Shown here one piece after another: positions 33,820-64,000 of a stretch of 64,000 bases of DNA; position 1 is the stretch's first letter, and each line of letters opens with the position of its first letter. Made by a program: the position numbers and the translations under genes. The stretch is from Candidatus Poribacteria bacterium. GTDB taxonomy: Bacteria > Poribacteria > WGA-4E > WGA-3G. The notes under the pieces are model-generated. The model saw only the letters and a list, made by a program, of their open reading frames with translations, had not been told where the DNA came from and did not search any database. The stretch spans positions 2,906,204 through 2,970,203 of the forward strand of contig OY282386.1 of the NCBI GenBank assembly GCA_958295945.1, in the 5' to 3' direction.

Positions 33820-35484
33820 TCACCGAATTTCTTCAATTCGTATGACTTGATTCACAGATATGTTATTGAGTTTATGTAATTGTCCACTTATCCACTTAAC
33901 CTCAATTGAGATCATATCTGAATATGTGCCAAGACCAAATAGAAGAGAAAATTCGCTTCCAGACGCATAACTACCACCAGACGTTACCTCTTTGATTTGT
34001 GTGATGTCACCAGTGCGTACAATCACTTTAGAACCAATTCCATCACGGTTGCTTGTATTTCCAACGAGTTCAATTTTCAACCAATTATTGTTCACTTGGT
34101 TATCATTTCGTAGTAGAACAGGATTGCCACCACAGCAGGATATCAGAATATCCATATCTCCATCAGTATCATAATCCGCGATTGCTGTTCCACGCGCAAC
34201 GACAGGATGTGTGAAAAACTCACCTACTGTTTCAGATATATCTGTGAATTTGCCCTCTTCCATGTTAGCAAAGAACTGACATTTCTGCTTGTAGGACAGC
34301 GAAGGGGTGATTTCTGCTACGTTATCCCATACATGTCCATTGGCAACAAACAGGTCTAATGTTCCGTTATTATCAGCATCAAGAAATTGAGTGCCAAATC
34401 CGAGTTGAGAGAAACTGGGTTCAGCAAGTCCAGTCTCAAATGTAGTCATTGTATAGAAACCATCTCCATCATTGTGAAAGAGACTGTTCACTTCCAAAGA
34501 AAAATTTGTGACAAACAGATCTAACAATCCATCATTGTCGTAGTCACCGTTGGCAATACCCATACTTGCGGTTGCACGTCCCTCTGAGTTATAGGCAATA
34601 CCTGCAGAAACAGCAACATCTTTAAATGTACCATCCCCGTTGTTATGATAAAGAAAATCTTCGACTGCATCGTTTGCAACAAAAATATCTGGTTTGCCAT
34701 CGTCGTTGTAGTCTGTGAATAGGACACCTAATCCCTTTCCTTCATTTTCAACACCAGCAATCTTTGTCACATCCGTAAATGTCCCATCTCCATTGTTTTG
34801 GTAAAGTGTATCTTGAGCACCAGGATATTCGTGTGGACCACAATAGATATGAACACCCTCAAGTATACATGGATGTGCTGTTTCAATCTGATAATCTAAA
34901 TAGTTCACAACATAGAGATCAAGGTATCCATCAAGGTTGAAATCACCGAAGGAAGCACTCACACTCCAACGACTATCACCAACACTTGCCTGCGTTGTCA
35001 CATCGCTAAATGTGCCATCTCCATTATTGCGGTAAAGTTGATTGCTTCCATAGTTAGTGAGATATAGGTCTGCATCACCGTCATTGTCATAATCAGCAGA
35101 AATACATCCCATTCCGAATCCGTAATTTTTCTCAAATCCGGAATGTTTCGTAACATCAGTGAATGTGCCATCTCCGTTGTTACGATATAAGACATTCATC
35201 TCGTCAGGATTTGTTCGGTGTTTGGATGGATTCGCACACGTCTTACCACTATTGACAAGGAATATATCAAGGTTTCCATCATTATCATAATCAAAAAACA
35301 GACAGCCTGAACCCATTGTTTCAGGTAAATATCTATGATCAGAAGCTCCGTTGTTATGTCTAAAGTTGATTTTTGCAGCCTGCGTCTGATCTGTAAAACG
35401 GACAGTTGTTTCATCTGCGTTTATGGGAAAGATGGATATGAAAAGGAATAAGCAGATGAGAATTAGATGAAAGACATTTTTCAT
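33820..35484 (-). CDS. CRTAC1-family protein (FG-GAP repeats plus ASPIC/UnbV domain), no T9SS tail
   Basis: Signal peptide. Repeated YDNDGxxD(L/I)F(V/L)xN... motifs. C-terminal NRDGIGSKVIV...SGGSYASGSEFSLLFGLG UnbV-like region. Confidence 0.65.
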   Translation of the reverse strand: MKNVFHLILICLFLFISIFPINADETTVRFTDQTQAAKINFRHNNGASDHRYLPETMGSGCLFFDYDNDGNLDIFLVNSGKTCANPSKHRTNPDEMNVLYRNNGDGTFTDVTKHSGFEKNYGFGMGCISADYDNDGDADLYLTNYGSNQLYRNNGDGTFSDVTTQASVGDSRWSVSASFGDFNLDGYLDLYVVNYLDYQIETAHPCILEGVHIYCGPHEYPGAQDTLYQNNGDGTFTDVTKIAGVENEGKGLGVLFTDYNDDGKPDIFVANDAVEDFLYHNNGDGTFKDVAVSAGIAYNSEGRATASMGIANGDYDNDGLLDLFVTNFSLEVNSLFHNDGDGFYTMTTFETGLAEPSFSQLGFGTQFLDADNNGTLDLFVANGHVWDNVAEITPSLSYKQKCQFFANMEEGKFTDISETVGEFFTHPVVARGTAIADYDTDGDMDILISCCGGNPVLLRNDNQVNNNWLKIELVGNTSNRDGIGSKVIVRTGDITQIKEVTSGGSYASGSEFSLLFGLGTYSDMISIEVKWISGQLHKLNNISVNQVIRIEEIR

Positions 35485-35511
35485 TACGAATTGTACTTGG
35501 GTTGGAAATAA

Positions 35512-37836
35512 CTATGGGGATTGTTCTTCAGATCTATTAATCATCTTCGTAATCTGATCCAACTGTTGCTGGATATGTGGCACGATGCTAATATCAGGAT
35601 ATGTTTGTAGCAAAGTGGTATAAGTTTCAGCAGCGCTGGTAAAATCATTCTTTTTCTCATATATTTTAGCGATTTGTGCTAAAGCTTCTGCTGCTAATGA
35701 ACTTTCAAGTGATGAAACCTGACGATATGAATGTATCGCATCTCCATAGGATTTCTGTGAATAATATATCTTACCCAGTAGCATCCAAATATCGTCAACA
35801 ATTGACGCTTTCGGATGTGCTGAAATTGTATCCTCACACTGTGTGATGGCTGATTTAGAATCTCCAGTTAGGAAGTATTGAAGTGCATTGGCATAATCTG
35901 TCAATGGGATAGACAGGTAGTCGGAATTGTCTTGTATCAACACAATCCGTTCAAGTGCATCGTTTGTTAATTCATCCGATTTTGAAGTCCGTAAGACTTT
36001 TTGATATTCCGATACTGCGTTATCAAATTCAGTAGCAAAGAAGTAAGAATCACCCAACAGTTTTCGCGCAGTAGCACTTGACCGACTCGCACTGATGGCT
36101 ATCGGTTCTAACACATCTCTGGCAAGAGTCCACCGTTTTTGCAGTAGATGACATTCACCAAGTATCAAATTCACTTCCATCAATTGGGATGCAGGCATAT
36201 TTCTGGATAACAAAGGTTGTAGAGTTATATGTGCGGCTTTGGGGTTATGCAGCCCGTGTAGTTGTGTTTTTGCAAGTAAAAGTTTTCTATCCACCGAGAA
36301 ACTATTTTGGTCTAATTTCTTCAAAATCGTTATTGCTTCATCCCACTGTTTATTCTTTTGGTACAAAGCCGCCATTTTATACCTTACATTCGTTAGTATT
36401 CTTCTATCATTTGAAAGTTGCAATAGAGATTTATAAAATTCTATGGCATAAGGATTTTGATTTCGTTCAAGATCATTCGCCAACTTCTCCAATGTTGCAT
36501 CAGTGGGGGTAGGATAGGTTCTGTGGATTTGTGTAAGTATTTTTAGTGCTTGAGATTGTTGTCCAGCATAGTAGTACATCTCACCTAAAGTCAATGCATT
36601 GTTGAGATTGGTTGGTGCAGCTTGATGAACCGTTTCATATTGAGCAATCAACTTTTTCCTTAATGGTTCTTGGCTTGCTCCTTGATAGATTTCAAGCATA
36701 GATTGCCAAATTGCTGCACGTTGACTTGTACTTGGACCAACGGTTTGCAGTCCATCAAGATAGGTAGCAGCAGCTTTTTCAATATCTCCTTGGATGCTAT
36801 GGACTGCTGCAAGTTGGGTATACAGATAACCATAACGCGGATTTGCTCGTATTGCCTGCTGAAACGATTCTATGGCATCCGAATACATTTTGTGAGAAAC
36901 ATATATCATCCCTAACTGCTGATGTTGATTAGAATCTCCCGCAACCAATTTCTTCCATTCTGCAATCGCTTTTTCCTTATCACCAAGTTCAGCGTAGAGA
37001 GACCCCAATTTACGGCGTATTGTTGTGTTTGCTGGATTTTTTTCAAGAACGCCTTGATATAGTTCAAGTGCCTTTTGAGTTTTGCCTTGCTGCTGGTATA
37101 TGTTGGCTAATTCCTCTAATAAGGTAGTATCCGTGGAATTTATTTTCAGTCGGTCTTTTATAAGTTTTTCTGCATCTGAAAAACGTTTGTTTTGTGTATA
37201 AAGACGAACCAAGCTACTAATAGCAGATGAACGATAGATGGAATTCGGATACTTATCAAGAAAATGCTTGTAACTCTTCATTGCAGATTCATAATCACCT
37301 TGAACATATTCATAATAAGCAATCAAGTAGGCAGCAACGGCAGCAGTAGCAGTGTCAGGGTGTTGTTTAATTATCTGCTTGCACATGATTTTTGCTTCAT
37401 TATACTGATAACGTTGGCTATACAGATTTGAGAGTTGATGAACTGCCTGAGATGCATACGAACCATCAGGATTTTCATCTATGACTTCTTTCAGAATTTT
37501 ACGTGCTTCTGCATCTTCACCGAGTTTTGCATAACTCTGTGCAAGCATCAAACGCATAGAATCTTTCTGAGTCTGTGAAAGTGTTCCTTTTAACAACTCT
37601 TGATACGCTTTAATGGCTTCAGCATAACGTTTTTGGTAATAATGATCATTTGCATCTTGAATTGCCTTAAGTGTATTTACCCTTTCTATTTGTTCGTCTG
37701 TAGATTGCCTCTGAGCAAGGACAGGACTAAATGTAGAAACAAAAAGGAATAACAGGACAATAGGCAGTCCGACTGAAACTTTCTTAATTAATGTAAAAAA
37801 ATGTTGCATGAGTAGATATTCCTTGTTTGTTTTCAT
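35512..37836 (-). CDS. Tetratricopeptide (TPR) repeat protein (774 aa) with N-terminal signal/anchor
   Basis: Many 34-aa A/Y/L-patterned repeats (e.g. AIKAYQELLKG, ALELYQGVLEKNP). The N-terminus is hydrophobic. Confidence 0.7.
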   Translation of the reverse strand: MKTNKEYLLMQHFFTLIKKVSVGLPIVLLFLFVSTFSPVLAQRQSTDEQIERVNTLKAIQDANDHYYQKRYAEAIKAYQELLKGTLSQTQKDSMRLMLAQSYAKLGEDAEARKILKEVIDENPDGSYASQAVHQLSNLYSQRYQYNEAKIMCKQIIKQHPDTATAAVAAYLIAYYEYVQGDYESAMKSYKHFLDKYPNSIYRSSAISSLVRLYTQNKRFSDAEKLIKDRLKINSTDTTLLEELANIYQQQGKTQKALELYQGVLEKNPANTTIRRKLGSLYAELGDKEKAIAEWKKLVAGDSNQHQQLGMIYVSHKMYSDAIESFQQAIRANPRYGYLYTQLAAVHSIQGDIEKAAATYLDGLQTVGPSTSQRAAIWQSMLEIYQGASQEPLRKKLIAQYETVHQAAPTNLNNALTLGEMYYYAGQQSQALKILTQIHRTYPTPTDATLEKLANDLERNQNPYAIEFYKSLLQLSNDRRILTNVRYKMAALYQKNKQWDEAITILKKLDQNSFSVDRKLLLAKTQLHGLHNPKAAHITLQPLLSRNMPASQLMEVNLILGECHLLQKRWTLARDVLEPIAISASRSSATARKLLGDSYFFATEFDNAVSEYQKVLRTSKSDELTNDALERIVLIQDNSDYLSIPLTDYANALQYFLTGDSKSAITQCEDTISAHPKASIVDDIWMLLGKIYYSQKSYGDAIHSYRQVSSLESSLAAEALAQIAKIYEKKNDFTSAAETYTTLLQTYPDISIVPHIQQQLDQITKMINRSEEQSP

Positions 37837-39002
37837 TTCATTAAACCGAGACTCGCCGTTAGAGCCATACCGTAAAGCATACAGGATTCATCTATGTCGA
37901 ACTGTGGATGATGGCACATGTTAACAATACCTTCCTGTTCATTTCCTGCTCCTACCATAACAAAACAAGCAGGGATTTGCTGAGAATAGCAAGCGAAATC
38001 TTCACCACCAAGTATTGGAGAAATTGGATAGATAACATCTTCATCTCCAACTAATGTTTTTGCTGATGAGAGCACTTTTTCTACACACGGGTCATGATTG
38101 TATGTAACCGGACATCCTTCTTGGTAGGCAAAAGTGTAGGTTGCTTCATAAGCTTTCGCTATTCCTACCAGTAGGTTTTCCAACTGAGAACTAATACGTT
38201 TTTGAACTTCCTGTTTCAGAGTACGAACTGTGCCCCCAAGTGTTACGGAGGGAGGAATTACATTCTTAGCATCTCCACCGTGAAACTGTGTAATACTGAC
38301 TACAGCAGAGTCTAACGGATCAACGTTTCTTGACACAATAGACTGCGCTGCATTTACAAATTCTGCACCGATAACTATCGGATCAACTGTAAGATGTGGA
38401 AACGCAGCATGTCCTCCTCTTCCTGTAATAGTTATCTCAAAAATATCAGATTGTGCAAGCATAGGACCAGGACATGTTGCATATTTACCAACAGGGTACA
38501 ATGGAAAGACATGTATACCGTAGATTTCGTCAACACCGTCAAGCACGCCATCTGAAATCATCGCTTGTGCACCACCTGGGTATGCTTCTTCACAAGGTTG
38601 AAAGATGAATCGTATGTTTACTTTGAGTTGACTCTTCAGATTTGAAAGTATCCTTGCTGTGCCGATAAGCATAGCCGTGTGTGCATCATGTCCACACAAA
38701 TGTGCTTTTCCGTCTATTCTGGATTTGAAGGGAACATCCGTCTGCTCTTGAATAGGCAGAGCATCCATATCAGCACGTAAAGCAATGCATCTCGTCGCGC
38801 CATCAATCTCCAAATCCCCGACAACCCCTGTCCTACCTATTCCTGTTCTGACAGGTATATCAAGTGCCTCAAGGGCATCCGCTGCGATACATGCAGTACG
38901 CTCAACATCAAATCCTATCTCAGGATGTTGATGTATGTCTCGACGGATTGCTACAATATCATCAAAATGTTGATGACACTTTTCAAAAATTATATCCTTC
39001 AT
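37833..39002 (-). CDS. M20D-family amidohydrolase (N-acyl-L-amino-acid amidohydrolase/hippurate hydrolase-like)
   Basis: LCGHDAHTAMLIG metal-binding motif, ADMDALP motif and overall M20 peptidase/amidohydrolase layout; 389 aa. Confidence 0.75.
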   Translation of the reverse strand: MKDIIFEKCHQHFDDIVAIRRDIHQHPEIGFDVERTACIAADALEALDIPVRTGIGRTGVVGDLEIDGATRCIALRADMDALPIQEQTDVPFKSRIDGKAHLCGHDAHTAMLIGTARILSNLKSQLKVNIRFIFQPCEEAYPGGAQAMISDGVLDGVDEIYGIHVFPLYPVGKYATCPGPMLAQSDIFEITITGRGGHAAFPHLTVDPIVIGAEFVNAAQSIVSRNVDPLDSAVVSITQFHGGDAKNVIPPSVTLGGTVRTLKQEVQKRISSQLENLLVGIAKAYEATYTFAYQEGCPVTYNHDPCVEKVLSSAKTLVGDEDVIYPISPILGGEDFACYSQQIPACFVMVGAGNEQEGIVNMCHHPQFDIDESCMLYGMALTASLGLMK

Positions 39003-39135
39003 ATTAACACCTTAATTTTTACTGTCTTTTACTTATACCATTTCTATAAATCATTATGACATTAACCGTTGTCCAGAAAGATCGCGATTCGGAGATCGCT
39101 CCTACCAGAAGAGGGTGGGACATAATGGCACACAA

Positions 39136-40812
39136 TCAATTAGAAATGGTATTATATGTATATGTCCTACGAAGAATACTCTTGTGACCTTGATCGTTTT
39201 GCAGGCGATAGATTACGGTGTATATCCCTTGCATTTTTTGAAATGTATTACTATCAAGAAGAGGTGTAAATTCAACATATTTTGAAGTATCAGTTGGTAC
39301 TACTATTTTTTCACTGAAAGGACCGTAACACCTCACACCTAATGGATTGAGCACCTTCCATGTCAGTGTCACATGCTTCGGACGTGGTGGATTGTTGACA
39401 TATACCGTGATTTTATCTCCTAAAGTGTCTTTATCCATATAGAGTGTTCCCAATTTAGACAGCATTTTGTCTGTAAGCGTTATCGGAGGTACATATTCCA
39501 AATACCCGTTTCCAGGTATTGCACGCCATGTTCCACCTGTGGCTATTGCAATCTGTTTGATCGGTAGATAATCTAGTCCAATAACCTCAACACGAACTTG
39601 TTCCTTTTGCAAGGTAGAGATGACTTCATCAAGGCTATATTGTGACTTGCCATCAAAATCAGCATCATGAAAAGCTGCATCACTTGCAAGAATAAAGAAA
39701 CGTTGTGCATTTCGTCTGAATCGCATCTTATTGACAGCATCCATCAACGCATCTAAACCTGCTTCCGACATATCTCCGCCTCTATCAACATCAATCTTGA
39801 ACAACAAATTTTTGAATTTGCCGAAGTCAGTCGTTAACCCATAATTTTTGACTTTATCTGTGAATGTCACCAATCCGTAAGCTGCGTCTCGTTTTTCTCC
39901 CTTGAAGGCATCAAACACAAAGTCAAAATATGCACGAATCCCACGGATATTATCCATCATACTTGCGGTTTCATCAAGCAGAAAGACTATATCAACCTTA
40001 TCTGATGTTGTTGCAGATGTGAGTTGACCAGCAATGTCTTGCATCATCTTGATATAAATCCCACCGACTTTTCTACCACTTGATGTACTACTACCACTAC
40101 TACCACCCCATGTATTCCCCATACCTGCAGCTCGGAATGCATCGCCTCGCTTACTACCATAATGGATCTGTGGTGCACCTGCCTTTGGTGAAATACCACG
40201 CAAAGTGGCACTTACCTCTAAATTGATTGTACCTGTGTCCACACTTGGTGTCCCGATGGTATTTTTTGATGTAGATGTTAGTGTAAACTGGTCTCGATTA
40301 ACTTTGACAGTAGTGTTATGTGTGTGTGGATTTTGTGTTATATTTGCCTGTCGTAATGTGTGAAGATCTTCACCATCGTTTCTTGTATCTTCGTCAGGTT
40401 TATTGACGTTTTCCTGTGTTCGTCTTTCTGCTGTTGCTGCCATTTCTTCAAAACTATCAATATTCAACAGTGCGGTGTTTATATCAACGGTTGGTTTCGT
40501 TGGCGTAGGGGGTTTTTCTACTTCTTCATTAGAATTATCGTTTCTTGTAGGGGTAGGTATCTCCACAACCTCAGGTGGTTTAGGTTCAGTAATGCGTTGA
40601 ATTGGCACAAGTTCTCCAACTATTTCAGGTCTGAAATCTGGTTGTGCTATGTCTGTTGGAGAATACCACCACAGGCAAAACAGAAGAATTATGTGGATTA
40701 ACAGGGAATAGATAAGAAATGGGTGTTTCCGCTTTTTGTTGTTCATTTTTTTAATACCAATACGAAAAGGACTACTATAATCTATCCATATTATGATGGT
40801 GTATAAAGACAT
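39136..40812 (-). CDS. Membrane-anchored von Willebrand factor A (vWA) domain protein
   Basis: N-terminal TM segment (FLIYSLLIHIILLFCLWWY), a Pro/Thr-rich linker, a vWA region with a MIDAS-like DETASM (DxTxS) and a C-terminal beta-rich domain. Probable start at the internal MNNKKRK. Confidence 0.6.
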   Translation of the reverse strand: MSLYTIIIWIDYSSPFRIGIKKMNNKKRKHPFLIYSLLIHIILLFCLWWYSPTDIAQPDFRPEIVGELVPIQRITEPKPPEVVEIPTPTRNDNSNEEVEKPPTPTKPTVDINTALLNIDSFEEMAATAERRTQENVNKPDEDTRNDGEDLHTLRQANITQNPHTHNTTVKVNRDQFTLTSTSKNTIGTPSVDTGTINLEVSATLRGISPKAGAPQIHYGSKRGDAFRAAGMGNTWGGSSGSSTSSGRKVGGIYIKMMQDIAGQLTSATTSDKVDIVFLLDETASMMDNIRGIRAYFDFVFDAFKGEKRDAAYGLVTFTDKVKNYGLTTDFGKFKNLLFKIDVDRGGDMSEAGLDALMDAVNKMRFRRNAQRFFILASDAAFHDADFDGKSQYSLDEVISTLQKEQVRVEVIGLDYLPIKQIAIATGGTWRAIPGNGYLEYVPPITLTDKMLSKLGTLYMDKDTLGDKITVYVNNPPRPKHVTLTWKVLNPLGVRCYGPFSEKIVVPTDTSKYVEFTPLLDSNTFQKMQGIYTVIYRLQNDQGHKSILRRTYTYNTISN

Positions 40813-40877
40813 GCATCCAATATACTAAGAACTTCATCAAGGAGTTCATGAGGAGACTTTTCAATGAATTCAACCTG

Positions 40878-41135
40878 TCAACTATTATAATCTACAGATT
40901 TTATTTGTTCTACCATAACATAACCTGTTAGTGAGGATTGAGACGGGATTTTTACATGAAACGGTACATTTCTGTGGGTATTAGTTAGAGGACATACCAT
41001 AGCAAGTTGAGTCCGTATGTTAAATTGTGTATTACTGACAATCAATGCGGGGCGTCTTCCTTTCTGTTCATATCCTGATTGTGGATCGAATGATAGACGG
41101 ACGAAATCTCCTTTCTCTGGAATATACCTTCGCAT
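40878..41135 (-). CDS. mazF: Type II toxin, MazF/PemK-family mRNA interferase
   Basis: 85 aa; GDFVRLSFDPQSGYEQKGRRPALIVS...AMVCPLT is a canonical PemK/MazF core. Confidence 0.8.
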   Translation of the reverse strand: MRRYIPEKGDFVRLSFDPQSGYEQKGRRPALIVSNTQFNIRTQLAMVCPLTNTHRNVPFHVKIPSQSSLTGYVMVEQIKSVDYNS

Positions 41136-41411
41136 CTACCATACCTCTTTACCAACGGGGTTACCCCACTCTGTTTCCTCTGGTTGATATTCTTCAGGCA
41201 TTTCGGCAAGTAACTCCTGTAAATCAATTCGTTTTCTCGCTATAGTACGAGTTTCAACAATTATCCTACCATTTTGAATTGTTACCTGGACTTCATCCCC
41301 CGCTTTGATTTTTGCTTCGTCCAACATTGTCTTTGTAAAATAGATACTATCACTATTATCAGTTTTTTGTATCTTGGTTACCACAACAATTCTCCTTTTT
41401 TCATTATTCAA
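41136..41411 (-). CDS. mazE: Type II antitoxin, MazE/AbrB-type
   Basis: 91 aa. Directly abuts mazF (stop codon adjacent to the mazF start). SpoVT/AbrB-like AGDEVQVTIQNGRIIVE. Confidence 0.7.
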   Translation of the reverse strand: MNNEKRRIVVVTKIQKTDNSDSIYFTKTMLDEAKIKAGDEVQVTIQNGRIIVETRTIARKRIDLQELLAEMPEEYQPEETEWGNPVGKEVW

Positions 41412-41422
41412 ATATTTTTCAA

Positions 41423-42391
41423 CTATAAATGAAATTCAACTACATCACCATCATATAGGACATCGTTACGACTGACTGGCTGTCCATCGTGCCATTCAGG
41501 TCCCCATATTCGTGCAAGTTTGAATTCCGCAAAATCTTTGTGTAGACCCAGGGCAGCATCAAACACAGTTGCCCCGTTTGGTAAAACAATAGGGTCATCC
41601 CGTTCTACAGATTTTCCCGGTGCTTTCGGATAAACACGAACGATGTCCAATATATCGTATAAACCTTGTAATAGCTCTTCTTTACCCTCTCCTGTCTCAG
41701 CGGAGATTACATAGATAGGCACATCATCACCATAAAACTCAGATAGTATCTCCAATCTATCATTAGCATCTGGTGCATCAATTTGATTCGCAACAACGAT
41801 ATACCCTAACTCATCTCCATCAGCTTCTCCTCTTTGCTCGTTAAAAACGGAAAGAACAATATCTAATTCATCTAAGAGATTATCGTTCGCAAGACTTATT
41901 ACACCTAAACACAAATCAGCGTTCCTGACTAATGTCAGCACTGAAGGAGAGATAAAATCCTGCATTACTGAAGGAGTGTCAATCAGTTGGAATTGTATAT
42001 TCTCATAGGGAAGCATCCCTACAATCGGCATCGTTGTAGTGTATGGTGTCGGTGAGACCTCAGATTTCGCTTTTGTCCAGTTGGCAAGTATCTGTGATTT
42101 ACCACTGTTGGGTGGACCTAACATTACAAGTTGTCCAGCACCCTGTTTCGGTATATGTTCGCTATAACCCTTTTTCCCTGCTCCTTTACCACCTTTGCCT
42201 GATGAACCTTTTTTCAAGACTGCGATTCGCTTACGTAAATCCGATACTACTTTTTCTGTGCCTTTATGTTTTGGAACAATTCGAAGCATTTCCTCTAACA
42301 GACTCAGCCGTTCTTCATCTGATTTTGCTGCTTCATGTTCGTGTTTGAGTTTATAGTAGGTTGGAGGTAGATTTGCTGGCATATTGTTCAC
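41423..42391 (-). CDS. DRG-like (developmentally-regulated GTP-binding protein/Obg-HflX superfamily) GTPase with C-terminal TGS domain; G3/G4 motifs degenerate
   Basis: N-terminal helical region LKHEHEAAKSDEERLSLLEEMLRI...KKGSSGKGGKGAGKKGY, a glycine/lysine-rich linker, G1 GPPNSGKS, and a TGS-like C-terminus ...RIWGPEWHDGQPVSRNDVLYDGDVVEFHL. DTPS replaces DxxG and NQID replaces NKxD. Confidence 0.6.
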   Translation of the reverse strand: MNNMPANLPPTYYKLKHEHEAAKSDEERLSLLEEMLRIVPKHKGTEKVVSDLRKRIAVLKKGSSGKGGKGAGKKGYSEHIPKQGAGQLVMLGPPNSGKSQILANWTKAKSEVSPTPYTTTMPIVGMLPYENIQFQLIDTPSVMQDFISPSVLTLVRNADLCLGVISLANDNLLDELDIVLSVFNEQRGEADGDELGYIVVANQIDAPDANDRLEILSEFYGDDVPIYVISAETGEGKEELLQGLYDILDIVRVYPKAPGKSVERDDPIVLPNGATVFDAALGLHKDFAEFKLARIWGPEWHDGQPVSRNDVLYDGDVVEFHL

Positions 42392-42549
42392 CGAATCTGT
42401 GTATATTTAAAATAACTAAGACACATTACAACACCTACGACATATTACCAAATTTCTATGGTGGTGTCAAGATCATCTCATCTCATAGCAAAGACAAACA
42501 ATTTTGATCTCTCTGTTTACCTGCTGTAAACAAGTCACTCCTCTATGAT

Positions 42550-42771
42550 TCATGGGTTGATGAGTTCGATTGCATATTTTATACAACCTGTCACGAAGAA
42601 GATGACTGCAGCGGCAAAAAGAATAACGATTACAGCTAAAAAATAGCCCAAAAATAAACCATCTATGAGATTAAGGCAACCCTCTTCATCTGTTGAGAAT
42701 AATTTTCCCCAAAAAAAATAACCTAAGCAGATTATAATGAACACTGCCGAACATATAACGTAAACCATCAT
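42550..42771 (-). CDS. Small two-TM membrane protein (73 aa)
   Basis: Two hydrophobic helices (VICSAVFIIICLGYFFW and LGYFLAVIVILFAAAVIFFV). Confidence 0.4.
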   Translation of the reverse strand: MMVYVICSAVFIIICLGYFFWGKLFSTDEEGCLNLIDGLFLGYFLAVIVILFAAAVIFFVTGCIKYAIELINP

Positions 42772-42917
42772 ACATTTCCCATTGATTAGAGTTACGAAAC
42801 AATTTTTATATATTGTTCCAATAGTGTTTTCGTCAATATTGAAATTTCAGTTCTCTGTCTTTCTGCAATTCGTCCAACAATCCACTCACGACATAGATTT
42901 TCAATCACAGAAATACT

Positions 42918-43523
42918 TCATGCCTTTTGCTCCACCATGCTGGAAAGGATGCCGAGGATTTTGTCACACTGTCCAATAGCATAAACTTCCTTATCAATGT
43001 ATAGTTTTTTCCCTTCCAATTTGAGAAATTGCCACATAGTGCCTGTAGTGGCAGTTCCATAAATACAAGGGATGTCATTTCCTTTTTGGGTATTAAAGTG
43101 TTGGGCGGCGAGCATTTCAGCGATACACTGGCCGAAGCCAGAAACAGGATTTTCTCGCTTTGCTTCAACAAGAATGATTATGGGTGCTTCTAAATAAAAT
43201 TGCACAGGTGAGAGACTTACCAGAAAATCACATACGCCGGTCAAACCCTTTTCAACAGCAACACTGAAGTCAATTCCTGAAAAGAAACTAATTCGGTCCT
43301 CAAACTTTTCGCGAAGTTCAACGAGAACATCGGTGACAATTAATTCCGAGCTAGCTTTTTCTGTACCGATTGCGAGGGCTAATGGCACTTTTTTTGCCAA
43401 TGCAGTGGTAAGATGTGCACTCAGTGATACCGGTTCTAATCTGGAAGAAATATCCGCTGCTTCATTCGTTTCTAACTGAAACGCTTTAATTACTTCTTCG
43501 ATGGTAAAATTGCTATACGCCAT
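42918..43523 (-). CDS. PD-(D/E)XK nuclease-fold protein, stand-alone HsdR-N-terminal-like (HSDR_N_2-like) domain; tandem paralog 1 of 3
   Basis: 201 aa; GVCDFLVSLSP...APIIILVEAKREN (D...E-A-K), then GQCIAEM and GTATTGTMWQFLK (TNG..W.F-like). Confidence 0.5.
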   Translation of the reverse strand: MAYSNFTIEEVIKAFQLETNEAADISSRLEPVSLSAHLTTALAKKVPLALAIGTEKASSELIVTDVLVELREKFEDRISFFSGIDFSVAVEKGLTGVCDFLVSLSPVQFYLEAPIIILVEAKRENPVSGFGQCIAEMLAAQHFNTQKGNDIPCIYGTATTGTMWQFLKLEGKKLYIDKEVYAIGQCDKILGILSSMVEQKA

Positions 43524-43655
43524 TGTGTTAGTCCTCCTAAATGGTCATAGAACAAATAATGCTTTAATGTGTCCAATTTATCTATGCAAAATGATTGCCC
43601 GTTGAAATGTGTTCGACAATCCTTTCCAGATTAGATTCTCAGGGGCTGTAATAAT

Positions 43656-44261
43656 CTACGCCTTCTGTTCTACCATACTCGCGAGAATACCGAGGATTTT
43701 GTCACACCCATGAATTGAGTAGAATTCTGTATCAATATGGAGTTTCTGTCCATCTAATTTGAGAAATCGCCAGTCCGCTCCAGTCGTGCTGACCCCGTAG
43801 ATGTATGGGATACTGTTCGCTCTTTCAACATTAAATTGCTGTGCTGCGATCATCTCTGCAACACATTGACCGATGCCTTCTAATAAGTCATCCTTTTTTG
43901 CTTCAACCAAAACGATGATGGGTGCTTCCAAGACAAATGACACAGGTGACAGGCTTATCAGAAAGTCACACACACCAGTTAATCCCTTCTCAGCATCAAC
44001 GTTAAAGTCAATACCCGAAAAGAGGCTAATCTGTCGATCAAAATGTTCCCTCAGTTCCAAGAGCACATCCCCAACAATCATTTCTGATTTTGCTTTTTCT
44101 GTCCCGATAGCAAGCGCGACTGGCACATTGCGTTTCAATTCTGTTTTCAAATGCGCGCTCGGTGCCACAGGTGCTACATCACAAAAGAGGTCCGTGGGAA
44201 CATCTATTTCAAGTTGAAACTCAGTTTTCACGCTATCTAAAGTAAAGCTGCTATAAGACAT
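43656..44261 (-). CDS. PD-(D/E)XK nuclease-fold protein (HSDR_N_2-like); tandem paralog 2 of 3
   Basis: 201 aa; GVCDFLISLSP...APIIVLVEAKKDD, GQCVAEM, GVSTTGADWRFLK. About 60-65% identical to paralog 1. Confidence 0.5.
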   Translation of the reverse strand: MSYSSFTLDSVKTEFQLEIDVPTDLFCDVAPVAPSAHLKTELKRNVPVALAIGTEKAKSEMIVGDVLLELREHFDRQISLFSGIDFNVDAEKGLTGVCDFLISLSPVSFVLEAPIIVLVEAKKDDLLEGIGQCVAEMIAAQQFNVERANSIPYIYGVSTTGADWRFLKLDGQKLHIDTEFYSIHGCDKILGILASMVEQKA

Positions 44262-44289
44262 TATGCAATACCCCTTGTTCTGTAAAGAT

Positions 44290-44919
44290 TCACGCTTTTT
44301 GTTCTACCATACTCACGAGAATGCCGAGAATTTTATCGCACTGACCAATCGAATAGAGTGTTCTATCAATATGGAGTTTTTGTCCTTCCAATTTGAGAAA
44401 CCGCCAATCTGTTCCGGATGTGGTAGCTCCATAGATGCAAGAGAAGTCATTCCCTTTTTCTGCATTGAAACGTTGTGCAGCGAGCATCTCTGCAGCACAT
44501 TGTCCGAAGCCGAGTGTCAGGTTATCTTTCTTTGCCTCAACGAGAATGATGACAGGTGCGTCTAAAAATGAGAGGATAGGAGACAGACTTACCAAAAAAT
44601 CGCAAACACCAGTTAAACCTTTGTCATCATCAACGTTAAAGTCAATACCTGAAAAAAAACTTATGCCACGATCGAATTGCTCACGGAGTTCAAACAGAAC
44701 ATCAGTTACAATCAGTTCTGACCTCGCCTTCTCTGTACCAATTGAGATAGCTAACTGCACCTTTTCTTCTAACTCAGACATGAAACGATCCCGTGGCCTG
44801 ACCACATCTGTTTCAGAAAAGACACCAGCAGATTCTATAATTTCCAGTTCAAATTCTGAACGAACTGTATCTAAAGTGAAATTACTATAAACCACTACAC
44901 AATGCCTCCTTCTTATCAA
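44290..44919 (-). CDS. PD-(D/E)XK nuclease-fold protein (HSDR_N_2-like); tandem paralog 3 of 3 (real start probably near VVVYSNFTL)
   Basis: GVCDFLVSLSP...APVIILVEAKKDN, GQCAAEM, GATTSGTDWRFLK. The N-terminal 9 residues of the ORF as given are probably not translated. Confidence 0.5.
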   Translation of the reverse strand: MIRRRHCVVVYSNFTLDTVRSEFELEIIESAGVFSETDVVRPRDRFMSELEEKVQLAISIGTEKARSELIVTDVLFELREQFDRGISFFSGIDFNVDDDKGLTGVCDFLVSLSPILSFLDAPVIILVEAKKDNLTLGFGQCAAEMLAAQRFNAEKGNDFSCIYGATTSGTDWRFLKLEGQKLHIDRTLYSIGQCDKILGILVSMVEQKA

Positions 44920-45004
44920 TTTTCTCCTAACATTCCTATTATTGTAATGTTAAGTATATCACTTAAAATTCCTGTCGTCATATCAAACTGACAAAGTGAT
45001 AATC

Positions 45005-45790
45005 TCACTTTTCGTCTTGGACAGTGCTAATCTCATCTTCGGATATTTTGTGGACACTCTTTGGATTAAATGTCTGCGTAGTATCAACACGCAACGCCAC
45101 TTCAATTCTTCCACCTGTCAATACAAAAAACTGAATAAGAAAACCACCACCCTGCATCGATTCAACCTGATATTCATCAGTATCAAGATCACCAATCCAT
45201 TCTGGCAGCACATCTTCAAATTTCGGATGTACAATCACATTCTCTGGTAGTGCAACTATTAGCGTTCCGGGTTCATCACCAATTGCATTACCAATGATCT
45301 CTCGTTTTTCTACCATAAATGGGACAACGGTACTAGCATATTCAAAATCATCTCGTGTGTTACGTTCTGGTGGCACAAGTCCCCACGTCAGGTGATGGAT
45401 AAACGGATTGCCATATCCTTGTCCAAGCATGTGTTGCAAAGCCGTTTTGTCAACAGGATGCACAACAGCAACGTAGTCAAACCAACCATCATTCCGTGCG
45501 GGACTCTCCGCTGACAATTGTGCAGAAACATTGATATAGTCGCATCCATCAACAGGAGATGGATAACAGCGTGCATCCCATCCATTTATATATCCGAGTT
45601 GTTTTAAACCATCAGCTATGCAGTGAGGTGGATCACAAAAAATGGCAGCGTGATCCATGTTTGGATAGATCTGGACACCTGCACTCGTAATATGGTCCGC
45701 AACTTCGGTGGCTTCGGTAAAACGCAACGCTGCGTTTTCAATTTGTAAGTAATCTGCAAAATTTGTAGGCAATTTAATCAAGCTTTCCAT
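45005..45790 (-). CDS. Hypothetical protein (261 aa)
   Basis: ORF with good coding appearance. No domain recognised. Confidence 0.45.
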   Translation of the reverse strand: MESLIKLPTNFADYLQIENAALRFTEATEVADHITSAGVQIYPNMDHAAIFCDPPHCIADGLKQLGYINGWDARCYPSPVDGCDYINVSAQLSAESPARNDGWFDYVAVVHPVDKTALQHMLGQGYGNPFIHHLTWGLVPPERNTRDDFEYASTVVPFMVEKREIIGNAIGDEPGTLIVALPENVIVHPKFEDVLPEWIGDLDTDEYQVESMQGGGFLIQFFVLTGGRIEVALRVDTTQTFNPKSVHKISEDEISTVQDEK

Positions 45791-45953
45791 GTGATTCCTC
45801 CGTGGTATTACAAGATGCGATGCAATATCAGTTTAACAAAATTTACGACCATTAGCAAACGTATTTTCGTTGAAAAAAGTATGGAATACTGTTAACATAG
45901 AGACATTCAGATTCTGGAACATCAGAACAGTAGATTGTATCAAACCATGATTA

Positions 45954-46754
45954 TTGAGGGAATTAATGAGAAGAAATACATTTCGTGAATTACTTAATGC
46001 TGATAAACCAACCGTAGGAACACATATCCATACAACTTGGCCATCCATCGTTGAAGCAATTGGACATACAGGATTATATGACTATGTTGAATTTGTTGGG
46101 GAATACGGTCCATTTGACTTACACGATTTAGATAATTTGTGTAGAGCTGCTGAACTCCATAATATTTCAACAATGATTAAAGTTGACCAAGAACCGCGGG
46201 GATTCATTGCACAGCGCGCGATCGGTTCTGGATTCCAGAGTGTGCTTTATGCCGATTGTCAAAACGTTGAAGATGTGAAGGAGTGTGTGAAAATTACGCG
46301 TGCAGATACACCACAAGATGGAGGTAGTTACGGTGTTGCTACGCGCAGGTTCTCATATATGGGATATGGAGGCGGACCAGAATATGTTCAAGCACTACGA
46401 GATGTCGTCGTTGTTATTATGATTGAGAAGAAAGGGACAGTTGACAATCTTGAAGAGGTAATGTCCGTTGAAGGCGTTGACATGATACAATGGGGTGGTT
46501 CGGATTACTCTATGAGTATTGGTAAGGTTGGTCAGCGCGGTTCTTCAGAAATCCAAGAAACGGAACGGAGAGTATTTGAAACCGCATTAAAGATGGGAGT
46601 TCCGCCTCGGGCAGAGATTGGTAGTGCTGATGGCGCAAAACGATTTCTTGATATGGGGGTCCGACACTTCTGTATCGGAACTGATATATCTATTCTCTAT
46701 GGCTGGTGGCGCGAACATGGTGATGGATTACGGAAAGCACTTGAGGGACATTAA
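45954..46754 (+). CDS. HpcH/HpaI-family 2-keto-3-deoxy-acid aldolase
   Basis: 266 aa. N-terminal NTFRELLNADKPTVGTHI..., internal ...IMIEKKGTVDNLEEVMSVEGVDMIQWGGSDYSMSIG... and ...FCIGTDISIL match the HpaI/HpcH/2-keto-3-deoxy-L-rhamnonate aldolase pattern (TIM-barrel). Confidence 0.7.
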   Translation: MRELMRRNTFRELLNADKPTVGTHIHTTWPSIVEAIGHTGLYDYVEFVGEYGPFDLHDLDNLCRAAELHNISTMIKVDQEPRGFIAQRAIGSGFQSVLYADCQNVEDVKECVKITRADTPQDGGSYGVATRRFSYMGYGGGPEYVQALRDVVVVIMIEKKGTVDNLEEVMSVEGVDMIQWGGSDYSMSIGKVGQRGSSEIQETERRVFETALKMGVPPRAEIGSADGAKRFLDMGVRHFCIGTDISILYGWWREHGDGLRKALEGH

Positions 46755-62295: not shown

Positions 62296-63492
62296 TCAAT
62301 TAAGCAATACAAGGTTATCCCGATGTATAATTTCATCGTAATCGTGATAACCAAGAATTTTCTCTATGTCCTGCGTCTGTTTTCCGGCAAGTTTAGTAGT
62401 TTCTGTAGAATTATAGTTAATCAAACCACGGGCAATTTCTACACCATTTTCTGTGAAGCAAGAGACAGTATCACTGAAATTAAAATGTCCTTCAACACGC
62501 TTAATGCCAGCAGGCAACAAACTCTTGCCACCTTGAATGAGTGCATCTCGTGCTCCGTTATCTACAACGATGTATCCTTTGGGAGGACGGGAATAGGCGA
62601 TCCATCTTTTGCGACCAGAAATACGTGCATTCGGAAGGAAAAGCGTACCAAGCAGTTCCCCTTTTAGGAGACGCGTAACAACAAGCGGTTCACGTCCAAA
62701 AGCAATAACCAACATCTCCCCAGAAGAGGTAACTATTTCTGCGGCTCTCAACTTGGTTATCATACCACCTGTCCCACTTGCTGTGCCTGCTTTCCCCGCA
62801 GATTGCCATATCTCATCTGTGATCATATCAACCGTATGTATAAGTTCAACATCGGGATTATGTCGTGGGTCTGCTGTGAACAATCCTTGTTGATCAGAAA
62901 GTAGGATTAGCAAATCTGCTTGTGCAAGATTAGTAACATATGCTGAAAGCGTGTCGTTGTCACCAACTTTTATTTCGTCTACGGCAACACTGTCATTTTC
63001 GTTGATAATAGGAATCACATCAAGGTGGAGAAGTGCATGTAACGCATCATTCATGCGGGTATATCGTTTTCTGTCTGAGAAATCGTCTTGTGTCAGTAGT
63101 AACTGAGCAGGACATTGATCATAAAAGCGAAATCGTTCTTCATAAGCAGACATCAACCGAATTTGTCCAACTGCAGCAGCTGCTTGTAATACAGGCAGGG
63201 TTTGTTGATGAGAATTCACACCCAGATGAGGGAGTCCAGCAGCTATCGCTCCAGAGGTTACAAGTATGACCTCTACTCCATTTTGCTTGACAGTCGCTAA
63301 ATCGTGAACTAATCCATCAAGTGCTGATTCGTTGATACGATAATTATCTGAAATCGTACTACTACCGACCTTTACAACGATACGCTTAACTTCAGAAAGA
63401 CATTCACGACCATGTTTCAACTTGCCTTTGTCAATTTCTTTCACCTTTTTAGGAACTTTGTTTTGTAGGAATATTTCTTCGGTTTTATCCAT
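62296..63492 (-). CDS. proB: Glutamate 5-kinase with C-terminal PUA domain
   Basis: RIVVKVGSSTISD...LVTSGAIAAG amino-acid-kinase motifs and a C-terminal PUA-like region; 398 aa. Confidence 0.85.
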   Translation of the reverse strand: MDKTEEIFLQNKVPKKVKEIDKGKLKHGRECLSEVKRIVVKVGSSTISDNYRINESALDGLVHDLATVKQNGVEVILVTSGAIAAGLPHLGVNSHQQTLPVLQAAAAVGQIRLMSAYEERFRFYDQCPAQLLLTQDDFSDRKRYTRMNDALHALLHLDVIPIINENDSVAVDEIKVGDNDTLSAYVTNLAQADLLILLSDQQGLFTADPRHNPDVELIHTVDMITDEIWQSAGKAGTASGTGGMITKLRAAEIVTSSGEMLVIAFGREPLVVTRLLKGELLGTLFLPNARISGRKRWIAYSRPPKGYIVVDNGARDALIQGGKSLLPAGIKRVEGHFNFSDTVSCFTENGVEIARGLINYNSTETTKLAGKQTQDIEKILGYHDYDEIIHRDNLVLLN

Positions 63493-63503
63493 TTTCTGTC
63501 ACT

Positions 63504-64000
63504 TCATCTGATCACTTTCGGACTATAGGTAAACTCAAAATCATCAATCTGAATTGTATCACCTTCTTTGACGCCAGCACGGGTAAGGGCGTTTATTACT
63601 CCCATCTTTTTTAGTTTCCGAAATAGTAGCATCAACGCCTGTTCATTTTCAAAGTCTGTCATCACAACAGCCCGTTTCGGTTCATCACCACTTACAACAA
63701 ATCCTGTATCAGTCTCTTGGAGTTCAAACCGTGTACGTGGTTCAGGTGGTAGTTCCTGTTCAAGTGTAATTGTTGATTCAGCTTGTTCACGAGCCTTCGT
63801 GTCAAGGTATTGTAATGAACGGTACGCCTGATGCATGAGTGAATTGACACCTTCACCTGTGATACCGGATATTGGAAAGACTTTCCTTTTCCCAAAGTAT
63901 TCCTGCACCCGTTGTATATTCTCCTTCGCGTCAGGCATATCAATCTTATTAAGAGCAATGATTTGAGGAAGTTCAGTCAACAAAGCATTGTAATGTCCGA
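63504..64000 (-). CDS. obg: GTPase Obg/CgtA, C-terminal part (G-domain end plus OCT domain); the gene continues beyond the window end
   Basis: ALNKIDMPDAKENI (G4 NKxD), ...VFPISGITGEGV (G5), then a TIGR-OCT-like C-terminal domain. The ORF is open to the window edge and lies directly upstream of proB. Confidence 0.7.
   Translation of the reverse strand, partial: GHYNALLTELPQIIALNKIDMPDAKENIQRVQEYFGKRKVFPISGITGEGVNSLMHQAYRSLQYLDTKAREQAESTITLEQELPPEPRTRFELQETDTGFVVSGDEPKRAVVMTDFENEQALMLLFRKLKKMGVINALTRAGVKEGDTIQIDDFEFTYSPKVIR

Follow-up and report, generated by a model that had tools for sequence, protein, structure and literature searches.

Organization of the locus

The stretch of DNA analysed here (the window) comprises 64,000 nucleotides of a Candidatus Poribacteria bacterium (contig OY282386.1, positions 2,906,204 to 2,970,203) and contains a string of four genes encoding a GTPase related to the DRG/Rbg family, the MazE antitoxin, the MazF toxin and a von Willebrand factor A (vWA) protein. 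The initial annotation had described these genes as co-directional and tightly spaced, and all four open reading frames (ORFs) were confirmed on the minus strand within an uninterrupted series of co-directional ORFs extending from 35.5 to 42.4 kb (Table 1). The gaps were 38 nt between the GTPase gene and mazE, 0 nt between mazE and mazF, and 44 nt between the full mazF frame and the vWA gene. Downstream of the vWA gene the series continues with an M20 peptidase gene and a TPR-repeat protein gene, which together with the preceding genes form the block GTPase-(mazEF)-vWA-M20-TPR.

The GTPase as a relative of the DRG/Rbg family

The sequence MPANLPP was the start in all homologues of the GTPase; hence the ATG codon at 42382, rather than the GTG of the ORF, was taken as its likely start. 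The Pfam matches were MMR_HSR1 (1.5e-13) and TGS (PF02824, 2e-10, residues 252-320). From its N-terminus, the protein consists of a helical hairpin with the apex PKHKGTEK, a disordered Gly/Lys linker, the G domain and, at the C-terminus, TGS. Such an organization had been likened in the initial annotation to that of DRG/Rbg proteins, and the profile searches, the fold comparison, the hairpin, the linker and the TGS domain all bore this out. When the family profile was compared with PDB sequences, Rbg2 (7.7e-56) and Rbg1 (6.5e-53) scored far ahead of MTG2/Obg (~1e-24 to 1e-20), Nog1 (~1e-21) and YchF (1e-10), and only the alignments to DRGs extended from the N-terminal helices to the TGS domain. 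An AlphaFold2 (AF2) model built on the family alignment had a mean predicted local distance difference test (pLDDT) score of 92.1. The top three PDB matches of this model in Foldseek were all Rbg1 chains, among them 7rr5_R (Rbg1 on the ribosome, 2.5e-17) and 4a9a (Rbg1-Tma46). The DRG/Rbg proteins were therefore the best match in sequence and fold along the full length of the GTPase, closeness being judged by profile E-values and Foldseek ranking and not by a tree with archaeal DRGs.

The likeness extended to single motifs. The apex of the two-helix hairpin carries a Lys motif, with PKHKGTEK of the GTPase standing opposite QKNKATEH of Rbg2 and Rbg1. Among 100 representatives of the GTPase family, H39 and K40 of this motif were invariant and P37, K38, G41 and T42 were conserved in at least 93%; in the AF2 model the motif forms the loop joining helices 22-35 and 40-60. 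In eukaryotic DRGs the corresponding lysine occurs in every orthologue and is a substrate of JMJD7, which hydroxylates it, and the helix-turn-helix (HTH) of these proteins touches the 60S subunit (PMC8629797). Further shared features were the Gly-rich linker, the P-loop GxPNxGKS with its K+-type Asn, and a hydrophobic residue following G3. The C-terminal TGS domain was shared as well and aligned with its counterparts in Rbg1, Rbg2 and human DRG1 (2eki).

However, the GTPase also differed from DRG/Rbg proteins. It lacks the S5D2L insert between G3 and G4: these motifs are 64 aa apart, the AF2 model shows only the canonical alpha2-beta4-alpha3-beta5 elements there, ~50 residues of Rbg2 (184-235) have no counterpart in the family profile alignment, and no Pfam match to MMR_HSR1_Xtn (PF16897) was found at E<=0.01. 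S5D2L (~65 aa, Rbg1 residues 176-240) defines DRGs within the Obg family, and yeast Rbg1 from which it has been deleted is conditionally functional (PMC3510508). Moreover, the whole family has another residue in place of the G3 glycine (DxP[P/A/S]), where DRGs have the canonical DxxG, and the poribacterial proteins read NQxD instead of NKxD in G4, most other members having [N/T]KxD. Finally, the host is a bacterium, and no DRG family regulatory protein (DFRP) partner is known. Because both S5D2L and the canonical G3 were looked for and found to be missing, the GTPase is treated here as an uncharacterised variant of the DRG kind and not as a DRG proper.

Other Obg-related families were more distant. 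The Obg/CgtA proteins have the same Obg-family G domain, but the GTPase lacks the N-terminal Obg fold and has no GTP1_OBG Pfam match; the NCBIfam Obg models scored ~50 bits against cutoffs of 280-406 (TIGR02729, 50.8 bits against 280), and the profile E-values were ~30 orders of magnitude weaker than those of the DRGs. The YchF/OLA1 proteins likewise carry a TGS domain after an Obg-family G domain, but only their P-loop region aligned, the coiled-coil insert is missing from the GTPase, and its G4 is not of the NxxE type.

Motif conservation and nucleotide handling

The G motifs of the GTPase are G1 GPPNSGKS, G2 T116, G3 DTPS, G4 NQID and G5 SAE. The deviating G3 and G4, as well as the G1, had been read in this form by the initial annotation, and the reading held after HMMER alignment to yeast Rbg2 and Rbg1, where DTPS stood opposite DLPG (Rbg2) and NQID opposite NKID. 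The protein had for this reason been called degenerate, which the conservation data contradicted. At the fourth G3 position (S138 in the window) the 100 representatives have Pro in 83 cases, Ala in 10, Ser in 7 and Gly in none. The G1 residues G89, G94 and K95 are invariant, and the K+-type Asn (N92) is present in 99 representatives; the G2 Thr was found in all 100, the G3 Asp (D135) in 98 and the G4 Asp in 89. Only Poribacteria (3 of the 100 representatives) show the Lys-to-Gln exchange in G4, and both DTPS and NQxD were invariant in 16 poribacterial GTPases of 72-96% identity. The ratio of nonsynonymous to synonymous substitution rates (dN/dS) was 0.04-0.10 between the window GTPase and seven poribacterial orthologues, dS being above 1 in most pairs and synonymous sites mostly saturated. 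Judged from these alignments, the deviations in G3 and G4 are fixed features of the family or lineage under strong purifying selection.

An altered nucleotide specificity, which had also been suggested, is unlikely. Guanine specificity is expected to be kept, and altered base specificity is not expected, because G4 retains its Asn and the guanine-specifying Asp. The replacement of the G3 glycine, mostly by Pro, which has no backbone NH and hence cannot donate to the gamma-phosphate, would mean that switch II is coupled to the gamma-phosphate in an unorthodox way. We know of no other TRAFAC GTPase family with a DxPP consensus.

The same residues could also be explained if the protein were a pseudo-GTPase, in which the loss of the G3 glycine and the Lys-to-Gln exchange in G4 had abolished GTP switching or hydrolysis and left a static ribosome- or RNA-binding factor, either nucleotide-bound or nucleotide-free. 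The complete absence of the G3 glycine from the representatives and the prevalence of Pro in its place agree with this explanation, as does the behaviour of Ras, in which G60A weakens the GTP-induced conformational change. However, the conserved P-loop, K+-type Asn, G2 Thr and G3 Asp are those expected of an active nucleotide and Mg2+ site, the G4 Asp is largely kept, the Ser of Poribacteria still has a backbone NH, and strong purifying selection acts across the whole G domain. The pseudo-GTPase was thus regarded as improbable, although it fared better than the other alternatives considered below.

It was proposed instead that the GTPase is a housekeeping factor belonging to a widespread bacterial family that is a sister or a variant of DRG/Rbg. 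It would bind GTP-Mg through the intact P-loop, the invariant G2 Thr and the G3 Asp, with the P-loop Asn marking it as one of the K+-dependent GTPases, and would presumably hydrolyse GTP. By analogy with Rbg1/Drg1, it may dock on the ribosome through the hairpin (PKHKGT, similar to KNKAT of DRG) and the TGS domain, and act as a translation-associated factor. As all family members examined have another residue in place of the G3 glycine, switch II would have to work somewhat differently from that of classical GTPases, the poribacterial Ser still offering its backbone NH.

Distribution of the GTPase family

DRG-type GTPases had been considered uncommon in bacteria by the initial annotation, and the searches spoke against this. 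With phmmer, 372 matches at E<=1e-30 were obtained among 1.84 billion cluster representatives (50%-identity clusters), and the 150 of these that were listed were mostly full-length proteins of ~320-335 aa with 35-47% identity. A scan for the peptide PKHKGT[ED][KH] in one genome per GTDB species matched at least 600 species genomes, with at least 15 phyla among the best 80 loci. The groups represented in these 80 loci were Poribacteria, Methylomirabilota, Aerophobetes, Zixibacteria, Binatia, Planctomycetota, Nitrospinae, Chloroflexota, Armatimonadota, Desulfobacterota, Clostridia/Bacillota, Ignavibacteria, Acidobacteriota, WOR-3, Latescibacterota and Bacteroidota. The homology search for the GTPase gave 6813 matches among 8000 candidates scored. 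The named homologues of both the GTPase and the vWA protein were from Candidatus Poribacteria. Three family members carry the Joint Genome Institute (JGI) label "ribosome-interacting GTPase 1", so annotation pipelines already place the family with DRG/Rbg1.

DRGs are described in reviews as absent from bacteria (PMC8629797, PMC4263083), and in a 2026 phylogeny Obg stands for the bacterial branch, while the branch of archaea and eukaryotes is Rbg (10.64898/2026.05.13.724932). No paper describing a bacterial DRG-like family was found in a partial literature search, and this absence is no proof. We tentatively propose, at somewhat less than even odds, that the family is a pan-bacterial counterpart of the DRG/Rbg translation factors of archaea and eukaryotes and an ancient sister of these rather than the result of a recent transfer from archaea. 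Three features taken together would define it: the absence of S5D2L, the universal loss of the switch-II glycine (DxPP/DxPA/DxPS) and the retention of the HTH apex lysine motif. If true, the proposal would contradict the textbook absence of DRGs from bacteria, place the origin of DRG-type factors nearer to the last universal common ancestor, and provide a natural "minimal DRG" with unorthodox gamma-phosphate sensing. The family could reveal what a DRG cannot do without and how switching proceeds in a TRAFAC GTPase that has no G3 glycine, and it includes lineages with cultured members (Planctomycetota, Chloroflexota and Bacillota).

The mazEF cassette

Loci of other genomes are denoted below by numbers from L001 onwards. 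The MazE protein matched the NCBIfam model NF007312 with an E-value of 2.3e-7, which is below the curated cutoff, and its match to ChpS was also weak and below cutoff; it was 52-58% identical to the same-site orthologues in L004, L005, L006 and L009. The antitoxin gene lies directly 5' of mazF, its TAG stop codon abutting the mazF ATG, as in a coupled pair. The MazF protein matched PemK_toxin (1.4e-20) over profile positions 1-82 of 109 only, and NF007386 (5e-21) below the curated cutoff.

The toxin gene of the window is thus not full-length, with 85 of ~113 codons. In a DNA alignment codon 86 was TGA, where three orthologues have CGC or CGT (Arg). When the stop was read through, the frame continued as KSVDYNS*QVEFIEKSPHELLDEVLSILDACLYTPS* (asterisks are stop codons), ending at the TAA at 40791-40793, and the L004 orthologue reads KSVDYVSRHVQFLEKAPDWVLDEVLSILDACLYPSS*. 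Recoding of TGA was considered as a cause of the stop and rejected, as long ORFs across the window read normally with table 11.

The other carriers of the cassette differed in the state of the toxin gene (Table 1), and mazEF was absent altogether in six related loci (L001, L002, L003, L007, L008 and L011). Where it is absent, the GTPase and vWA genes are separated by 11-29 nt, except in L008 (513 bp). Between the window and L004, MazF is ~80% identical and the GTPase 71-72%, a pattern that fits a long residence of the cassette with repeated loss, though repeated insertion is conceivable. The search for repeats around the insert yielded one weak 24-nt pair, probably due to chance, and no evident insertion scars. 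On this comparative evidence, mazEF is an ordinary chromosomal type II toxin-antitoxin cassette that forms a variable and decaying insert in the GTPase-vWA spacer. In three genomes the toxin has been inactivated independently while mazE was kept, which looks like toxin-first decay; the site would offer a clean small case of such decay at one orthologous position.

The cassette resembles mazEF of the E. coli type in that the antitoxin comes first and the stop and start codons are adjacent. It differs in the truncation of the window toxin and in the frameshifted or deleted orthologous copies. In E. coli, mazEF lies directly 3' of relA, which encodes a TGS-domain, ribosome-associated protein. In the region 41136-42391 of the window, mazEF is also placed 3' of a gene for a TGS-domain and probably ribosome-associated protein, the GTPase; the parallel is probably coincidental and is to be taken as a curiosity rather than as evidence of a link.

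The vWA protein

The vWA gene is real (Pfam VWA, 9e-12), and the membrane location of its product, claimed in the initial annotation, is predicted from a single N-terminal hydrophobic segment. A short basic N-terminus (MNNKKRKHP) is followed by a signal-anchor helix at about residues 8-28, by a linker of ~200 aa that is rich in Pro, Thr and Glu and predicted to be disordered, by the vWA domain (~250-420) with the MIDAS-like motif DETAS, and by a C-terminal beta-sandwich (~433-531). The AF2 model was of low confidence (mean pLDDT 49.6), and only its secondary-structure layout was used. The sequence had no match in the PDB. The full-length protein had only 335 detectable relatives, and every named one was from Poribacteria.

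The vWA domain is probably extracytoplasmic. Direct contact between the vWA protein and the cytosolic GTPase appears unlikely, because only ~7 cytoplasmic residues are predicted to precede the anchor. The protein appears similar to BatA/BatB in being anchored in the membrane near its N-terminus, in carrying a vWA domain with a MIDAS-like motif and in having a TPR protein encoded nearby. It differs from them in having no MoxR or DUF58 partner, in the long disordered linker and the extra C-terminal beta-sandwich, and in the restriction of its family to Poribacteria.

Synteny of the gene string

The gene order around the GTPase was compared between genomes, locus identities being given as GTPase identity to the window GTPase. 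The vWA-M20-TPR genes followed the GTPase gene without mazEF in L002 and L003 (78%) and directly in L007, L008 and L011 (73-84%). In L001 (89%) the vWA gene began after 15 nt and was followed by a transposase gene, M20 and TPR. Complete mazEF pairs preceded the vWA, M20 and TPR genes in L004 (71%) and L006 (86%), while L005 and L009 (85-90%) had mazE with a missing or broken mazF at this place. In L010 (83%) the downstream block was replaced by a transposase gene. Thus, the order GTPase-vWA-M20-TPR was found in 11 of the 12 loci (the window included) with a GTPase identity of at least 71%. Beyond this range, mutY was the next gene in L012 and L013 (60%), and in L014 (56%) two HEAT-repeat genes came next, with a vWA orthologue ~5 kb downstream.

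Conservation was not confined to the downstream side. Upstream of the GTPase gene and on the strand opposite to it, a minus-strand ORF of 534-580 aa, which encodes an M28 peptidase in L002-L004, appeared to be conserved about equally. This suggests a general block synteny rather than a special pairing of the GTPase and vWA genes.

Outside Poribacteria, the two ORFs flanking the GTPase gene on either side were scanned against Pfam in 55 loci. None of the 102 downstream and 105 upstream ORFs (207 in total) contained VWA or PemK, and the neighbours were unrelated housekeeping genes, the commonest Pfam family occurring only 3-4 times, with 4 of the 102 ORFs as the maximum. The linkage of vWA, mazEF and GTPase therefore does not recur in the other genomes compared, apart from Poribacteria with a GTPase identity of at least 71%.

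Interpretation of the gene string

Based on these data, we propose that the string consists of three independent units, a DRG-like GTPase, a decaying mazEF and a vWA envelope set, held together by inherited gene order in one poribacterial clade (probability about 0.78). The GTPase would serve as the housekeeping factor described above. The toxin has been interrupted by a nonsense codon in the window genome, which would leave an intact antitoxin behind, and the vWA, M20 and TPR genes may constitute a Poribacteria-specific, envelope-associated gene set. The caveat of the initial annotation that the linkage could be coincidental has proved the better reading.

Several observations speak against such independence. 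The GTPase and vWA genes lie close together (11-29 bp) and have stayed adjacent in genomes with saturated synonymous sites. The vWA protein itself has diverged to 48% identity; some functional or transcriptional coupling within Poribacteria is therefore conceivable. In addition, the four genes are probably co-transcribed, because no terminator-like site was found between them in the scan. The numbers of promoter and terminator matches were at or below the shuffled expectation and give a weak hint of co-transcription only. The candidate sigma-70-like promoter of the string (Table 1) is the best match to the consensus and nothing more, the regional number of matches not exceeding that of shuffled sequences. 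Within the GTPase unit, the mechanism may differ from that of DRGs more than was assumed by analogy, because the family lacks both S5D2L and the G3 glycine.

The same adjacency could mean that a real operon with a lineage-specific function links the GTPase gene to vWA-M20-TPR, for example in translation-coupled expression or in the biogenesis of an envelope complex, with mazEF as a passenger. The short spacing where mazEF is missing, an order kept in nearly all of the close loci despite dS values above 1, and the vWA orthologue still present downstream in L014 favour an operon. However, the opposite-strand ORF upstream appears to be conserved to about the same degree, the adjacency is lost in L012 and L013 and broken by insertion sequences in L010, the GTPase family is pan-bacterial while the vWA family is confined to Poribacteria, and the two proteins are predicted to reside in different compartments. 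An operon of this kind was therefore considered unlikely, slightly more so than the pseudo-GTPase.

The initial annotation had likened the string to NTPase-centred conflict or sensor modules. In a module of this kind the GTPase would sense a ribosomal or phage signal and control the MazF RNase and a vWA partner; such a reading is very improbable and was largely refuted by the synteny data. In its favour count the co-directional and tightly spaced genes with no terminator-like site between them, the presence of mazEF at exactly the same site in five poribacterial genomes (GTPases 71-100% identical) and three PD-(D/E)xK paralogues just upstream that match a CRISPR-associated PADLOC model. Against it, PADLOC (E<=0.01) matched none of the four proteins of the string, six related loci have no mazEF, and three of the five genomes with the cassette carry a broken toxin. 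Moreover, the 55 loci from other phyla had neither vWA nor PemK next to the GTPase gene, the vWA protein is predicted to expose hardly any residues to the cytoplasm, and L001-L004, the loci with gene tables, lack the PD-(D/E)xK genes at this place. As a conflict or sensor module, the string adds nothing to the biology of defence systems.

Other features of the window

The coordinates of the genes, their orthologous toxin loci and the neighbouring features are collected in Table 1.

Table 1. Genes and other features of the window, with the mazF loci and transposase genes of related genomes
Feature	Coordinates	Strand	Remarks
TPR-repeat protein	35512-37836	minus	774 aa; 4-nt overlap with the M20 gene; last member of the block
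M20 peptidase	37833-39002	minus	Member of the Poribacteria block
vWA protein	39136-40812	minus	Likely start M23 at 40746, giving 536 aa (39136-40746)
mazF 3' remnant	40791-40877	minus	27 in-frame codons and TAA; 60-80% like orthologues; ELLDEVLSILDACLY
mazF toxin, truncated	40878-41135	minus	85 codons, then in-frame TGA at 40878-40880
mazF, full frame	40791-41135	minus	Nonsense codon, Arg86 to TGA
mazE antitoxin, intact	41136-41384	minus	82 aa from the likely GTG start after AAGGAG, as in orthologues; mechanical ORF from TTG at 41411
GTPase	41423-42391	minus	GTG start, 322 aa; 319 aa from the likely ATG at 42382
Candidate sigma-70-like promoter	42442..42470	minus	TTGACA-17-TAATAT with TG; ~60 nt 5' of the GTPase ATG
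ORF, hydrophobic	42550-42771	minus	73 aa
PD-(D/E)xK, first	42918-43523	minus
PD-(D/E)xK, second	43656-44261	minus
PD-(D/E)xK, third	44290-44919	minus
ORF	45005-45790	minus	261 aa
obg-like gene, 3' end	63504-63983	minus	Last 159 codons; NKID; DUF1967/OCT domain
mazF, intact	L004; L006		114 aa in L004; orthologous mazEF pairs
mazF, frameshifted	L009:9395-9740		Several single-base deletions
mazF absent, mazE retained	L005:4507-5078
Transposase	L001:12606-13760		Interrupts or replaces the vWA-M20-TPR block
Transposase	L010:9212-10075		Interrupts or replaces the vWA-M20-TPR block

The Pfam matches of the two transposase genes in L001 and L010 were DDE_3 and a weak DDE_Tnp_1 match (9.4e-5) below cutoff; these genes illustrate how the local gene order is disrupted. 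Outside Poribacteria, the only recurring neighbours of the GTPase gene were those of dihydroorotate dehydrogenase B, DHO_dh and DHODB_Fe-S_bind, which adjoined it in 3 loci each (L017, L018, L024 of Aerophobetes and others); this association appears to be lineage-restricted.

The three PD-(D/E)xK genes directly upstream of the GTPase gene encode proteins of 201-209 aa, the first two of which are 64% identical. Each matched the PADLOC model PDLC01472 "PD_DExK" (CRISPR-associated) at ~1e-47, and none had a Pfam or NCBIfam match. Nothing resembling a CRISPR array was found in the window, where Tandem Repeats Finder gave two short repeats only, and an Rfam scan of 35000-46000 returned nothing at gathering thresholds. 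The ORFs of 261 aa and 73 aa had no Pfam match, and the former had no PADLOC match.

The initial annotation had also placed a canonical obg at 63.5 kb. An Obg-like gene with NKID and DUF1967 does lie there, of which the window contains the 3' part alone; it stands upstream of proB (AA_kinase and PUA) in the minus-strand region 62296-63983. The genome therefore encodes both an Obg-like and a DRG-like GTPase.

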